DNA of 64,000 nt, from NCBI GenBank assembly GCA_051294905.1, contig CM119371.1:7938001-8002000 (forward strand), written 5' to 3'. Shown piece by piece: positions 1,523-20,833 of the stretch. Source of the DNA: Botryllus schlosseri (Eukaryota). Position 1 is the first letter of the stretch, and each line of letters opens with the position of its first letter. The notes under the pieces were generated by a model. That model did no database searches and was not told where the DNA came from. It was given only the letters and a program-made list of their open reading frames with translations. Both the position numbers and the translations under genes were made by a program.

Positions 1523-1736
1523 AGTAGTATATAAGTGCTCATCCAGTTCCGCTCCAATCACATCGCAGCATTTGATCACGTGACTACTTTTGAATTTCAA
1601 ATCAAACAGAGAAAAGCGCGCGAAAGAGTTATATCAATAGTGCTTCAATAGGGACAATGGGTGACAATATATGTCAATAACGGGCGTGACCGTCATTGTA
1701 TTGACAATGATTGTGTCAGCTGATTGTATAATGGGG
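1523..1736 (+). repeat. Left terminal inverted repeat of the Polinton (214 bp)
   Basis: Reverse complement of 20620-20833, with one mismatch seen by eye (CGTGACCG vs CGTAACCG). Confidence 0.97.
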
Positions 1737-1825
1737 GTTAATGGGTAATCACGTGACAAATTTGTAATTATATATTTTTTTAGCATCACTACAAATCATT
1801 CTTATTCCTATATATATATATATGT

Positions 1826-2143
1826 ATGTCGCTTATGAGATTATACCATCAAAGAAATCAAGGATTGCAATTGACAGAGATGTCGAGAATTACAGCTTCT
1901 GATGTATACGACATTATAGAGAGGGTTCATTACAAGACTTGGAAAAGATTTGCTCGAGATCAACTTAAGTTAACAGACTTAGAAATTGCTGATTGTGAAT
2001 ACGCGGATCCCAAGAACTTAACTGAACAATGTTATCAAATGATACAAATATGGCTTCGTAAAAATGGTCGATGTGCTACAATTGACAGACTCGATGAATT
2101 AGCTAATAGTTGTATGTACGATTGTACTACCACACGGAATTAG
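1826..2143 (+). CDS. Death-domain-only protein
   Basis: WKRFARDQLKLTDLEIADCE..P.NL.EQCYQMIQIW..KNG..ATIDRL fits the death-domain consensus (W..LAR.L.L....I..I....P..L.EQ..QML..W....G..AT...L). Confidence 0.88.
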   Translation: MSLMRLYHQRNQGLQLTEMSRITASDVYDIIERVHYKTWKRFARDQLKLTDLEIADCEYADPKNLTEQCYQMIQIWLRKNGRCATIDRLDELANSCMYDCTTTRN

Positions 2144-2278
2144 CTCGAGAAGAAAAATGAGAACAGTCCATTTGATTTACCGTTATCAGATTTGAATGTC
2201 TCAATGAGTTTACCGTTGGGAATTAACGCGCCAAAAGTAGTTATTTAAACACCACTACGAGTGAGCGGGACATGAGAA

Positions 2279-2446
2279 ATGGATATACTTTTGAGTGAAG
2301 ACTCCGATATCGCGTTCTACGTGATATTATGCTCTTGCATTAAAACCTATTGCTGCAGCAATATATACAAGAAGAAAAGAGATTCCGAGATTGCAGAAGC
2401 TTGCAACGACCTTAAAGCTGCTATCTGTAAAGTCTTCGGGCAATGA
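2279..2446 (+). CDS. Small Cys-containing hypothetical protein (55 aa, MDILLSEDSDIAF...KVFGQ)
   Basis: ORF read manually (below the track cutoff); its TGA overlaps the next ATG (ATGA at 2443-2446). Confidence 0.4.
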   Translation: MDILLSEDSDIAFYVILCSCIKTYCCSNIYKKKRDSEIAEACNDLKAAICKVFGQ

Positions 2447-2640
2447 AGCTAATATTCATAATATTCTTATTGATGCTAAATTGGAAATCAGCGGATGCTC
2501 CGGAATTAATATACCCTTTCACCGTGAAATATCATGAAGAGGACTGCATAGCTACTGAGCAAGAAGCAATGAAATTGATTTTACGTTATATCGCGGCATA
2601 TTCTTTGACTAACTGTACGCATATTGAAATAAACTATTGA
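2443..2640 (+). CDS. Small putative secreted protein
   Basis: N-terminal signal-peptide-like MKLIFIIFLLMLNWKSADA; ATG coupled to the upstream stop. Confidence 0.5.
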   Translation: MKLIFIIFLLMLNWKSADAPELIYPFTVKYHEEDCIATEQEAMKLILRYIAAYSLTNCTHIEINY

Positions 2641-2849
2641 ATGATGATTTGCATTGTATTGACTCGACTTTGTTAGGTTGTGCTTTCAGTGCCATATAGT
2701 GCTGCTATAGCTTCGTGGTTCTGCTACAATTTTACTAACACTAAAGCTTTGAGAATAGAGAGAGACACAAATGTAGGATGAGATTTTATTATTCAGACCA
2801 AATATGAATTTACCATTTATTTTCCATTAACACATATTAAACCAGTAAT

Positions 2850-3434
2850 TTAAAATTGCTGAGAATTTTGCATCCACCCCGCAGGGCGATGTCCGTATTG
2901 AGGTGGTGGTGGTGGCGGTGGTACGCCAGCATTCATTCCGTAATAGGCGTTTTGTGGTGCTGCATTCATGCCATTAGTAGCGAAGTTCGCTTGAGGATGA
3001 TCTTTTGATTGGATTTGTCCCGATTCTGCGATGAAGCGAGATGTTTCCTCCAGAATGAACGATAGCGGACCACAGTCAGGATCCTGTACCACATTACCTA
3101 TATAAAGATATAGTTTATTAGTACAGAATTTCATTAGATATTTACAATCTAACATACTTGGAGAATAAATTGTAAATTCGTCTGCTGGGTTAATCTGCTG
3201 GAAACATTCAGCACCATCACGAGTATAGGTCGCAACGAGTCCACCTTTGTGCGTGAAGACGGCTTTGTATCGCTGAATGGCGCCTGAAGTACGATGTAAG
3301 CGCAATTGATGATGATCAATTACATCATCATTTATGCTTTCAAGTCGTAGCTTCGATATGTTATTAAAAACATATAGCTCTTTCCTCAATGGACCGCCGA
3401 CAATTCTACTATCACCTCTTATTGCGATGCTCAT
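2850..3434 (-). CDS. Hypothetical protein with low-complexity C-terminus and polyproline/PPxY motif
   Basis: 194-aa ORF; C-terminal PPPPPPPQY; AATAAA downstream on the minus strand near 2785-2790. Confidence 0.7.
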   Translation of the reverse strand: MSIAIRGDSRIVGGPLRKELYVFNNISKLRLESINDDVIDHHQLRLHRTSGAIQRYKAVFTHKGGLVATYTRDGAECFQQINPADEFTIYSPSMLDCKYLMKFCTNKLYLYIGNVVQDPDCGPLSFILEETSRFIAESGQIQSKDHPQANFATNGMNAAPQNAYYGMNAGVPPPPPPPQYGHRPAGWMQNSQQF

Positions 3435-3512
3435 ATTGATTCTAAATTAATATAGAAAACACAATATAGTTATTATTCAGTGAAAACATGAATCCACACA
3501 CGAGAAAATAGA

Positions 3513-18683: not shown

Positions 18684-18767
18684 TTTGATATGTCTGTAAT
18701 AAAATCGCAAAACAACTACGGCTCCTCATTCGTGTTCTAGTCAGATACAGCATCAATAGAAAAGTCG

Positions 18768-18838
18768 TGGAGACTACGGGAATTGAACCCGTATCTTCTA
18801 TTTGCAAGACAGATACTCTACCATTGAGCTAAGTCCCC
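18768..18838 (-). tRNA. trnA: tRNA-Ala(UGC) encoded inside the Polinton
   Basis: Folds by hand into a full cloverleaf: acceptor GGGGACT/AGTCTCC with G3:U70, D-stem GCTC/GAGT, anticodon stem TCTGT/ATAGA with loop CT-TGC-AA, T-arm ACGGG-TTCAATT-CCCGT, discriminator A; TTTT terminator 4 nt downstream. Confidence 0.93.
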
Positions 18839-18948
18839 ATTCAGACGAATAACAACGCAACCAGACGTTGATTTTTTATTATTTATTACAAGAACAATAC
18901 GGAATGTATAATGCAATTCCACGCTACTCGCGGTGGATTAAAACAACA

Positions 18949-19428
18949 CTATTTTTCTTGCTGGGTGACTTGCGTATCTTCCATTGCATGTCTACGGGTA
19001 TATTGAGTAGCTAGTTGGAAATAACGTTCCTTATTTTTTAAATACATTTCCGCACTCTCTTGATCCATCGGATCATAAGGGTTTGGTGAAGCGAGCAATG
19101 AACGTATTGATATCAGAAGAGTGGACGTTGTCATCGCTGGTGACCATTCCTTCTGTAAAATATCGACACATATGGTACCTTTACAGCTTACGTTAGGATG
19201 GAATATCCGTGTTTCAAATCGCATTTTAGGAGGCTTGAATGGATACTCGGTAGAATATTCGATTGATAATCTGAACACACCACCTTCGTAGGGCGTTCCG
19301 TTTGGTCCTTGGATCGTTGCCCACCAACTATACATATTCTTTTCATCGAATGGTCCTGCTCGGATACCTTCGTAAGCATTCTGCTTAAATTTTGCTTGTT
19401 CATATATCAAACGCTTCAAAGCACGCAT
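18949..19428 (-). CDS. Ubiquitin-conjugating enzyme E2 (UBE2D/Ubc4-like)
   Basis: ALKRL, W.ATI.GP.GTPYEGGVF, YPFKPPK, FHPNV...G.ICVDIL..EWSPA; catalytic Cys intact; likely start MRALKRL at 19428. Confidence 0.96.
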   Translation of the reverse strand: MRALKRLIYEQAKFKQNAYEGIRAGPFDEKNMYSWWATIQGPNGTPYEGGVFRLSIEYSTEYPFKPPKMRFETRIFHPNVSCKGTICVDILQKEWSPAMTTSTLLISIRSLLASPNPYDPMDQESAEMYLKNKERYFQLATQYTRRHAMEDTQVTQQEK

Positions 19429-19593
19429 GCCTATCGAATGATAGTATTCGAACTGTCGCACTTGCTTTCAAATAAACTATAATTCAATCTAATTATACAT
19501 GTAAATAGAAATAGGTTACAGAATAATGAATGATATGATTAATGTATGAAATGACATACGTCGCGCATTTCAAATCTACAACAAAAAAATATA

Positions 19594-19920
19594 TTAATGT
19601 ATGAGATGAGATGCGTCGCTCATTTCTAATCTGTAACAATTTCCCATAAATAGGCTGTTTAATTCCACGGCGGTTCCTTGTTTGATAGTAATACACTTTC
19701 CATTTATGCGGACATCTTCCTCATGAATCTTCATTGATTTTTTTTCGTTGTCTTCGTCACGTATGATCACCCACGTATATCCTTTACGGCGTTTTATTAT
19801 GAACTGCTGCTCAAATTTTATCGTCGCTACACCCGTTACTATTATACTCTTTGAAGTTTGGTCCATTGTAATATTTGTTGGAGATTCGAATTTGACATCG
19901 TTAATCACTATTCTTCCCAT
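19594..19920 (-). CDS. Hypothetical beta-rich protein
   Basis: 108-aa ATG ORF, weakly similar to 18342-18683. Confidence 0.6.
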   Translation of the reverse strand: MGRIVINDVKFESPTNITMDQTSKSIIVTGVATIKFEQQFIIKRRKGYTWVIIRDEDNEKKSMKIHEEDVRINGKCITIKQGTAVELNSLFMGNCYRLEMSDASHLIH

Positions 19921-20619
19921 CGTCGCTCAATTTCGTATTGAATGGCTTAGCATCAAATTTGTGACTTAAATAGTTCCCTAAACTTCTTCTACAATCATTG
20001 TCAATACAATGATGATCACACCATCGCGGAATAAACATATATATATGATCGCAAACTTGTCACGTGATCAAAGCTATGTATGGTGCAATATCGCTAGGTT
20101 ATTACCCATTGTGCAATAACGGTCACACAACTCTTTCGCGCGCTTTTCTCTGTTTGATTTGAAATTTCAAAAGTGGTCACGTGATTGGAGTCGGTCTAAA
20201 TACCCACTTTGACACGTTAATCAAAACAACAGCAACGAAGGCTAGGCGAGATGGGCAGAAGACTGCAAATCCTGAACAATGGAGGGTGTAACACCAGAAC
20301 GAGCGAAAATATACTTCGAACATTTGGACAAGCACTGGGAGAGGAACTGGGATGGAGCTTGCGATGGGATGGCTGTATAGGAATAATCGGACTGTATATA
20401 GGAATAAGAATGATTTGTAGTGATGCTAAAAAAATATATAATTGCAAATTTGGTACGTGATCAAAGCTGTGTATGGTGTAATATCACTAGCTTTGGACTT
20501 GTCTACGGTATTAACCATTGCACAATACCGTAACGTTCGCTAGCACACACCCCATTATGCTGTCACGGTTCGCTCTCCTAACCCACACCCATTAACACCC
20601 ATTATGCAATCAGCTGACA

Positions 20620-20833
20620 CCCCATTATACAATCAGCTGACACAATCATTGTCAATACAATGACGGTTACGCCCGTTATTGACATATATTGTCACCCATT
20701 GTCCCTATTGAAGCACTATTGATATAACTCTTTCGCGCGCTTTTCTCTGTTTGATTTGAAATTCAAAAGTAGTCACGTGATCAAATGCTGCGATGTGATT
20801 GGAGCGGAACTGGATGAGCACTTATATACTACT
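20620..20833 (-). repeat. Right terminal inverted repeat of the Polinton
   Basis: Reverse complement of 1523-1736. Confidence 0.97.

Follow-up and report, generated by a model that had tools for sequence, protein, structure and literature searches.

What does a mobile element do with genes of cell death and ubiquitin signalling? This question is raised by positions 1523-20833 of the window, i.e., of the whole stretch of 64,000 nucleotides analysed here (Botryllus schlosseri, assembly GCA_051294905.1, contig CM119371.1, positions 7,938,001 to 8,002,000), where a complete-looking Polinton/Maverick of the adintovirus type carries genes for a death-domain (DD)-only protein, a BIR protein, a C14 peptidase and a ubiquitin-conjugating enzyme (E2), together with a tRNA gene. 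We consider it reasonably likely that the Polinton lineage maintains these arm genes in order to control cell death and ubiquitin signalling in its host. The element is a very young integrated copy of a mobile, multi-copy family, its cargo is under purifying selection and is not a passenger, and two of the arm genes (o194 and the E2 gene), as well as the small gene o136, are made into host-style mRNAs from integrated copies.

The selection acting on the cargo was estimated from variants scored against the commonest codon at each position, those shared by at least two copies having arisen while the lineage was active. For the DD, BIR, C14 and E2 genes taken together, the shared variants comprise 29 that are synonymous and 16 that are not, which corresponds to an omega of 0.13 with a binomial p of 7e-11. 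In the same way, the shared variants of the unnamed arm open reading frames (ORFs) give omega values of 0.08-0.33, including 0.24 for o65. The dN/dS analysis that a first-pass annotation of the locus had put forward as a check of its proposal of a host-manipulation module thus points to constraint on the four named genes. Variants found in a single copy of these genes have an omega of 0.42 instead of 0.13, which suggests that selection acts on the element lineage and not on the resident copies. Comparison of the window element's family (A) with its relative B gives dN/dS values of 0.13 for the E2, 0.33 for the DD and 0.05 for the capsid protein. For BIR, o194 and C14, and for the DD between families A and C', dS is saturated (pS above 0.75) and yields no ratio, pN being far below pS.

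The element and its genes

The element is bounded by terminal inverted repeats (TIRs) of 214 nucleotides (nt) each that are 100% complementary and have the termini AG...CT, and by a target site duplication (TSD) of 6 bp, CAGGGT. Imperfect subterminal repeats (I2-I6) are found inward of the left TIR. The element contains 21 ORFs of at least 65 amino acids (aa) and one tRNA gene, and Pfam names seven domains in six of these ORFs. The first-pass annotation had described an intact Polinton lying between perfect TSDs, with core genes in its centre; the ends, the TSD and Pfam agree with this description. The conserved arm ORFs o194, o65, o113, o108 and o106, which it had left out, are included in the following list of features (SL, spliced leader).

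1517..1522: left TSD CAGGGT, a hexamer repeated at the right end
1523..1736: left TIR, 214 nt, starting with AG, 100% complementary to 20620-20833
1826..2143, + strand: death-domain-only protein (Pfam Death 2.9e-10); conserved start M19 at 1880, giving 87 aa
2443..2640, + strand: o65, small ORF with a hydrophobic N-terminus and no family (ORF list, Pfam)
2850..3434, - strand: o194, beta-domain protein with a disordered Pro/Gln tail; in-frame 60-nt intron at 3095-3154; SL acceptor AG at 3443-3442
3513..3866, - strand: single-BIR protein, 117 aa, no RING (Pfam BIR 5.7e-11)
4543..6132, + strand: o529, whose N-terminal half is acidic/Ser-rich and whose C-terminal half (residues ~295-513) is conserved
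6293..6703, + strand: o136, expressed small protein; SL acceptor AG at 6282-6283; poly(A) at about 6730
6885..10751, + strand: 1288-aa DNA polymerase B (PolB) ORF; 92 homologues, many with PF03175
10780..11400, + strand: A32-type genome-packaging ATPase (Pox_A32)
11436..12303, + strand: o101 and o154, two small basic ORFs conserved in all families
12291..13295, + strand: retrovirus-type integrase with a C-terminal chromodomain (rve, Chromo)
13452..15377, + strand: o276, o249 and o123; o276 and o249 are candidate penton/minor capsid proteins by position
15423..16700, + strand: candidate major capsid protein, double jelly roll (DJR-like_dom, Atlas; 99 genome matches)
16697..17158, + strand: tentative maturation cysteine protease (weak ASFV S273R match; position after the capsid gene)
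17131..17451, + strand: o106, small ORF conserved in families A, B and C' (tblastn)
17516..18256, + strand: metacaspase-like C14 peptidase (Peptidase_C14 1e-12)
18342..18683, + strand: o113, small ORF, no family
18767..18838, - strand: tRNA-Ala(UGC), Polinton-specific lineage (ARAGORN, Rfam)
18949..19428, - strand: UBE2D (UbcH5)-type E2 (UQ_con 4.3e-47); SL acceptor AG at 19490-19489; internal GT..AG joint 19283-19153
19594..19920, - strand: o108, small ORF, exchangeable cassette (tblastn, copy comparison)
20620..20833: right TIR, ending with CT, complementary to the left TIR
20834..20839: right TSD CAGGGT

The gene layout and the integrase chromodomain agree with the published description of adintoviruses. 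In Pfam, the integrase ORF matches rve (8.8e-13) and, at its C-terminus, Chromo (3.8e-11), and the packaging ATPase matches Pox_A32 (2.2e-9). The E values of the 92 homologues of the PolB ORF go up to 0; many of these proteins have a precomputed PF03175 assignment, and those that are named come from molluscs, amphioxus and a ctenophore. The ORF itself gives weak C2H2 fingers only in Pfam and 0 matches at E up to 1 in a sequence search of the PDB. One of its Cys motifs resembles, as judged by eye, the catalytic loop of OTU proteases. An OTU domain could not be confirmed: no OTU family was obtained in an Atlas search with residues 100-330 and no OTU match was given by Pfam on PolB. According to the part of the preprint examined, PolB carrying an OTU-like domain N-terminally belongs to the definition of adintoviruses (Buck et al. 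2024, 10.1101/2024.03.25.586562).

The 425-aa ORF is a candidate for the major capsid protein, with a putative double jelly roll; it matches DJR-like_dom at an E value of 0.029 only (Pfam), and its Atlas look-alikes at 0.98 are clusters in which 14-24% of members have this domain. The ORF that follows has a single weak match, to S273R of African swine fever virus (ASFV; E 0.025), and could tentatively encode an adenain/Ulp1-like maturation cysteine protease. The products of o276 and o249 weakly and reciprocally match each other; their candidacy as penton/minor capsid proteins comes from position only. The location of o529 corresponds to that of the ‘Oncoid’ genes of adintoviruses as described in the examined text of PMC8502044. 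Outside of the element, on the - strand, the window holds remnants of a long terminal repeat (LTR) retroelement (25799-29812, with rve and Integrase_H2C2 at 26232-26693 and RVT_1 at 27691-29358).

Copies, families and movement of the cargo

The host assembly (495.5 Mb, 219 contigs) was searched for related elements. The copies were analysed one stretch at a time, and a gene running across the end of a stretch was left unscored. The capsid protein has at least 99 matches, which include 14 loci of family A (93-100% identity), 12 of family B (85-87%), about 45 of families C and C' (66-72%) and 25 of family D (34-36%). Two other family-A copies are flanked by perfect 6-bp TSDs, TTCAAC and AATAGG, unlike that of the window copy. 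The 30-nt terminus (at most 4 mismatches) was not found in 9 of 11 left arms and in 8 of 13 right arms, and a TSD can be read in only two other copies. The right-arm genes of most copies are 98-100% identical to those of the window copy. Taken with the perfect TIRs, such identity points to activity in the very recent past.

The first-pass annotation had also asked whether sister copies keep the cargo, and about 13 family-A copies do. Among the 13 other loci of this family, C14 retains its full length and an open frame in 11 (of the remaining two, one contains a stop and the other is truncated), the E2 gene is open in 10 (one stop, one interrupted, one missing), and the tRNA gene is present in 12 and identical in nine. 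The DD and BIR genes are each found in 11 of these loci; two loci have no detectable left arm. Of the 11 other copies having o65, 10 have kept its frame open.

The cargo of the other families is a variation on the same set. Family B carries a DD gene (54%), o194, a BIR gene (55%), an E2 gene (63%) and a Bcl-2 homologue (7.6e-20) but no C14 (tblastn, Pfam), and ARAGORN calls three tRNA genes in it, Ala-UGC, Pro-UGG and Leu-UAA (Bcl-2 and tRNA loci: L001:1280-1783 on the + strand, L001:2144-2216, L001:2941-3013 and L002:6100-6183). Family C' has DD (59%), o194, C14 (66%), tRNA-Ala and tRNA-Pro genes, two BIR genes, of which an extra one of 94 aa adjoins the DD gene, and a gene adjoining C14 that encodes a 404-aa protein with three BIRs (cargo loci: L003:2228-3442, L003:3484-4209 and L004:9589-9873, all on the - strand, and L008:815-1056). 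In family C, o194 and a BIR gene have been retained, so that o194 occurs together with BIR in families A, B, C and C'. Family D consists of the core only.

Arm genes also move between Polinton lineages. The o108 genes of families A and C' are 92-93% identical, whereas the capsids share 70%, and their dS is 0.2, as against saturation elsewhere. In C', o108 (L004:8916-9239) sits in the opposite arm. Within family A, this ORF occurs as two allelic types (98% versus 72-75% nucleotide identity). The identity of o108 and the existence of two allelic types indicate cassette exchange.

The tRNA-Ala(UGC), called by ARAGORN and by Rfam RF00005 (73.4 bits), is the sole tRNA in the window. Its 72-nt gene has 26 matches in the genome, all of them in Polinton copies (family A, 13; family B, 12; family C', one), and the T-stems of the A/B and C' genes differ by paired compensatory changes. 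These Polinton-only matches and compensatory changes indicate that the tRNA gene is an old, selected part of the element. This tRNA, like the tRNA-Pro and tRNA-Leu of sister families, could serve the element either in translation or as a polymerase III/chromatin element.

The acquisition of genes by Polintons is a known phenomenon, and the DD, BIR and E2 genes have paralogues in the host. Captured host genes could therefore be mere hitch-hikers that do nothing for the element. This explanation appears very improbable when confronted with the omega of the four named genes (0.13, p 7e-11), with the retention of these genes in families that have capsid identities of only 70-87%, with the invariance of catalytic residues and with the compensatory changes in the tRNA stem.

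Other dispersed units with cell-death genes were encountered in the genome. Units of about 5-15 kb with a DD-only gene at each end, the two in inverted orientation and the DD being nearly identical to that of family B, are found at L046/L047 (G000:C5:10639500-10651500) and in many other places; they may be internally deleted Polinton derivatives. A dispersed repeat represented by L045 (G000:C3:29436000-29445500) carries eight same-strand ORFs, including a 564-aa inhibitor of apoptosis (IAP) with three BIRs and a RING, and an E2. About 30 IAP/E2 pairs of this kind are scattered over the genome. This unit is possibly another mobile element with cell-death genes.

Products of the cargo genes and their transcription

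The first-pass annotation had described a DD-only protein. A death domain alone is indeed what Pfam identifies, but the start had to be moved. The 5' part of the frame is affected by a small indel in 5 of 11 sister copies and, in the other families, the DD genes begin at a codon equivalent to M19, so that the product is most likely the 87-aa protein initiated at this codon. In the PDB, its best match is the death domain of FADD (2e-6), followed by those of TNFR1 and RIPK1. It lacks the second interaction domain (DED) of FADD-type adaptors and, being DD-only, is not a usual adaptor.

Apart from Polintons, this protein has its closest relative in the genome in an intronless host protein of 554 aa, at the N-terminal DD (59% over 75 residues, E 4e-27); this host protein is composed of Death and Peptidase_C14 domains, whose protease domain is a true caspase (best PDB matches caspase-2, caspase-9 and CED-3). 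Such DD-caspases form a group of five tandem intronless paralogues of about 550 aa on contig 8 (L048, C8:2400000-2405000; C8:2.35-2.40 Mb). The host has furthermore a FADD candidate with DED and DD (L049:1465-2175), the DD being interrupted by an intron, and a caspase-8-like gene with two DEDs. A DD-caspase of Hydra is recruited to FADD filaments, according to the portion examined of a preprint (bioRxiv 10.1101/2019.12.13.875351). A complex prediction for the DD of the host DD-caspase (residues 1-100) with the Polinton DD had a score of 0.01, which is no verdict and weighs neither way.

Since its architecture is that of a DD-only copy of a caspase prodomain, the Polinton protein is probably a decoy of the prodomain of the host DD-caspase. 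It would block the recruitment of the caspase at a FADD-type adaptor in a way that can be likened to that of viral FLIPs, CARD-only proteins or dominant-negative FADD. The BIR-only protein, as well as the Bcl-2 homologue and the triple-BIR IAP of sister families, could be further brakes on apoptosis. The zinc ligands of the BIR (Cx2C...H...C) are kept in all five Polinton versions.

The E2 aligns with UBE2D2/D3 over residues 3-149 (1.9e-45), including the HPN motif and the catalytic Cys, both of which are kept in families A and B. Such a UBE2D-type enzyme could feed RING ligases such as IAPs and thereby redirect ubiquitination. The genome also contains a tandem array of about 25 intronless E2 genes (G000:C1:34.12-34.49 Mb), 53-68% identical to the Polinton E2; it is a possible source of, or sink for, this cargo.

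The product of o194 has few relatives: a HMMER search of 1.84 billion representatives gave eight matches, five of them real, all short unnamed proteins. Its AlphaFold model is confident and all-beta for residues 1-125, the tail being disordered, and has no Foldseek match at E up to 0.001 (best VIA Z 5.0).

The C14 peptidase lies at the end of the block of virion genes, on the same strand. Its sequence matches in the PDB are metacaspase-type proteins from plants, yeast and bacteria, without any animal caspase. In agreement with this, Foldseek places its AlphaFold model (pLDDT 62, moderate) closest to AtMC9/AtMC4 (2.5e-9), MALT1 and caspases being weaker. The His (FVGHG) and Cys (AQCYSG) of the catalytic dyad are invariant in 7 of 7 homologues. 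All of its 16 matches in the genome are inside Polinton copies, and it shows no relationship to the DD-caspase of the host (E 3.1). This peptidase could have a late function, either the cleavage of host factors or the dismantling of the cell.

The ascovirus caspase kills the infected cell for release. By analogy, the DD protein and C14 could trigger or execute the death of the infected cell for release, with BIR, Bcl-2 and E2 proteins only timing the event; this role partly coincides with the late function considered above for C14. The position of C14 in the late block beside capsid and protease genes, its intact dyad and the coexistence of pro-death and anti-death domains in the same elements would fit such a role. 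However, a DD devoid of effector is the classical architecture of an inhibitor, as in dominant-negative FADD, and family B, with its 12 capsid loci, does well in the absence of C14. Killing as the purpose of the cargo seems unlikely, although not far-fetched, and the control of host cell death by brakes and decoys is preferred.

Transcription was looked for in the raw reads of two bulk RNA-seq runs; about 6% of run X15 yielded 182 reads and about 13% of run X19 yielded 42. A further run, X1, has even coverage over all 30 bins and probably consists of DNA, and run X11 (organism B) has 0 reads, which carries no weight. The RNA reads map on o194 and BIR (2704-4007), on the end of o529, o136 and the start of PolB (5312-7267) and, for a few of them, on 9224-11179, and the E2 region has a summed depth of about 12 (19004-19655). 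In both runs, 0 reads cover 11180-18351, which includes the integrase, capsid and protease genes, o106 and C14.

The mRNAs of o136, E2 and o194 begin with the same leader of roughly 25 nt, joined at AG acceptors located 10, 60 and 7 nt, respectively, upstream of the start codons. This leader does not occur in the window but has 254 occurrences in the genome versus 0 for a control, and at least one genomic site (L041) has a GT donor after it, in the manner of a spliced-leader RNA gene. It looks like the result of spliced-leader trans-splicing of provirus transcripts by the host. The o136 mRNA has a poly(A) tail. The GT..AG intron of o194 (60 nt, 3095-3154, - strand), through which the ORF reads and which corresponds to a 20-aa insert absent from all 9 homologues, is removed in RNA reads. 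Leader, poly(A) and intron removal show that the reads derive from processed mRNA and not from contaminating DNA. The existence of dedicated SL acceptors adjoining start codons is also difficult to reconcile with mere hitch-hiking of the cargo.

Other copies of the leader were observed. At L039, L040 and L042, it is followed by ORF-bearing sequence instead of a GT donor; these copies may be retrocopies of trans-spliced mRNAs. Another one is located about 2 kb downstream of the L045 unit.

The evidence agrees with a virus-like element that has an ‘early’ set for host control in its arms and a ‘late’ block formed by its centre and C14. The distribution of reads could reflect a two-phase programme run from within the germline genome, in which an exchangeable ‘early’ toolkit encoded by the arms (the decoy of the DD-caspase prodomain, the BIR, Bcl-2 and IAP brakes, the E2 and the tRNAs of the element) would be expressed from integrated copies through host SL trans-splicing while the virion block, with the C14 of non-animal type at its end, would stay silent until reactivation. 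Such a programme is conceivable, and we put it forward tentatively. The first-pass annotation had compared the terminal cargo to the E1/E4 regions of adenoviruses; the transcription of arm genes, as opposed to the integrase-to-C14 block, which has no reads, fits this likeness.

Expression of arm genes from germline-integrated copies, with no reads for virion genes, would also agree with a cargo that serves inheritance or the host, either as a toxin-antidote pair (protease and BIR) or as a domesticated suicide/defence module set off by superinfection. Integrated virophages are known to protect protists. The occurrence of IAP and E2, or DD, genes in other dispersed units of the genome goes in the same direction. 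Furthermore, the cargo of nematode Mavericks is a precedent, since it drives genetic incompatibilities, as reported in the examined part of a preprint (bioRxiv 10.1101/2022.07.12.499685). Nevertheless, the elements that hold the cargo possess complete virion and replication modules as well as perfect TIRs, the copies are young and occupy different sites, and the omega of singletons (0.42 versus 0.13) indicates that constraint is relaxed after insertion. A service to inheritance or to the host is quite unlikely, and maintenance by the Polinton lineage for its own use accounts better for these points.

Several observations nevertheless weigh against control of host cell death by the cargo. The RNA evidence is thin (182 + 42 reads). 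The E2 reads all carry variants limited to the copies C3_8M and C10_14M, which leaves expression of the window copy unsupported, and eight reads have lost 131 nt of the E2 (from GT 19283 to AG 19153), with loss of HPN and Cys and a shifted frame. The DD has a depth of about 0.1, the BIR bin mostly reflects the 5' end of o194, and C14 has zero reads. The check on cargo expression thus came out favourably for the E2, which is transcribed, but not for C14 nor, with almost no reads, for DD and BIR. The BIR protein lacks the C-terminal RING of classical cellular and baculoviral IAPs (Pfam finds BIR only) and, by comparison with XIAP BIR3, we take it to lack the tryptophan of the IAP-binding-motif groove, which makes caspase or Smac binding uncertain. 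Metacaspases have an Asp two residues before the catalytic Cys (D-x-C-H-S-G), which contributes to an acidic S1 pocket and to Arg/Lys specificity; in C14, this residue is Ala or Ser in 7 of 7 homologues (F[AS][QE]C[YH]SG), which bears on substrate specificity. Because of this replacement, the ‘metacaspase’ label initially given to C14 was changed to ‘metacaspase-like’, the C14 fold and the proximity to metacaspases being retained. Only four homologues of C14 were found among 5.8 billion proteins. With respect to the tRNA, the codon shares of the element (GCA 0.27, CCA 0.26, TTA 0.19) have no clear bias, the host sample of two genes being too small for comparison. Lastly, a scan of IMG/VR with the capsid protein gave 16 pattern matches, none of them confirmed, and no exogenous relative. 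The first-pass annotation had spoken of a genuine virus: a mobile Polinton is supported by copies with different 6-bp TSDs, but no relative in IMG/VR goes with it.

As a side observation, five further reads join position 19104 in the E2 to unrelated sequence.

Relation to known systems and significance

Viral FLIPs (DED-only), the CARD-only proteins ICEBERG and COP, and dominant-negative FADD are prodomain-only decoys. Like them, the Polinton DD protein is a small single death-fold protein that would copy the recruitment domain of an initiator caspase or adaptor; it differs in that the domain copied is a DD and the apparent model a DD-prodomain caspase, as in Hydra and in the tandem cluster of the host. 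ASFV, a nucleocytoplasmic virus of 170-190 kb, encodes an IAP (A224L), a Bcl-2 homologue (A179L), an E2 (UBCv1) and the protease S273R, and is comparable in that one DNA virus has BIR, Bcl-2-type and E2 genes with an adenain-like protease. However, it is not known to have a DD-only gene or a C14, and the Polinton set is spread over 19-kb elements and varies by family. The ascovirus caspase is likewise a virus-borne C14 peptidase, but a true caspase, whereas that of the Polintons groups with metacaspases by sequence and fold.

Among mobile elements, the giant Burro LTR retrotransposons of planarians carry BIR, BCL2-like and TRAF/ubiquitin-related domains, for which interference with apoptosis was proposed (Arkhipova and Yushenova 2019, PMC6431247, in the portion examined). 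The kind of domains is the same, but Burro is a retroelement with these domains inside one polyprotein, while the Polinton is a DNA element with separate genes.

The closest known relatives are adintoviruses and animal Polintons, which share TIRs, protein-primed PolB, rve integrase with chromodomain, hexon-like capsid, A32-type ATPase and terminal accessory genes (PMC8502044; 10.1101/2024.03.25.586562). Starrett et al. 2021 (PMC8502044) report, in the text examined, that adintoviruses carry homologues of IAP and of Bcl2 as well as gasdermin-like genes and, upstream of PolB, ‘Oncoid’ genes. The combination of cargo genes had initially been considered as undescribed. This claim was too strong given these published homologues; what stands is that DD-only, metacaspase-like C14, UBE2D-type E2 and conserved tRNA-Ala genes are unmentioned in the published text examined. 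The terms ‘death domain’ and ‘caspase’ are absent from the main text of PMC8502044, and the examined parts of a stony-coral polintovirus paper and of the 2024 survey preprint contain no apoptosis, BIR, death domain, caspase or ubiquitin. In full-text literature, mostly outside subscription journals, no Polinton/Maverick with a death domain or caspase was found, and Polinton combined with ubiquitin-conjugating turned up only a single paper, on a mirusvirus. As far as searched, the DD-only gene, the C14 peptidase, the E2 and the tRNA-Ala are therefore new among Polintons.

It is an open question whether animal Polintons/Mavericks should be seen as living viruses or just as large transposons, and a selected cargo with an obvious use in the control of infected-cell death argues for a real infection cycle. 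If the two-phase programme put forward above is true, no Polintons before these would have had a latency-type host-control module described for them, the module being directed against a FADD/DD-caspase pathway of cnidarian type. The system offers experimental handles, namely a DD-only protein with a look-alike in the host DD-caspase, a protease without host counterpart, an E2 and a private tRNA lineage, in integrated copies that are read by the trans-splicing machinery of the host. On the host side, a FADD/DD-caspase route that is worth attacking would be a probable antiviral route in early-branching animals.

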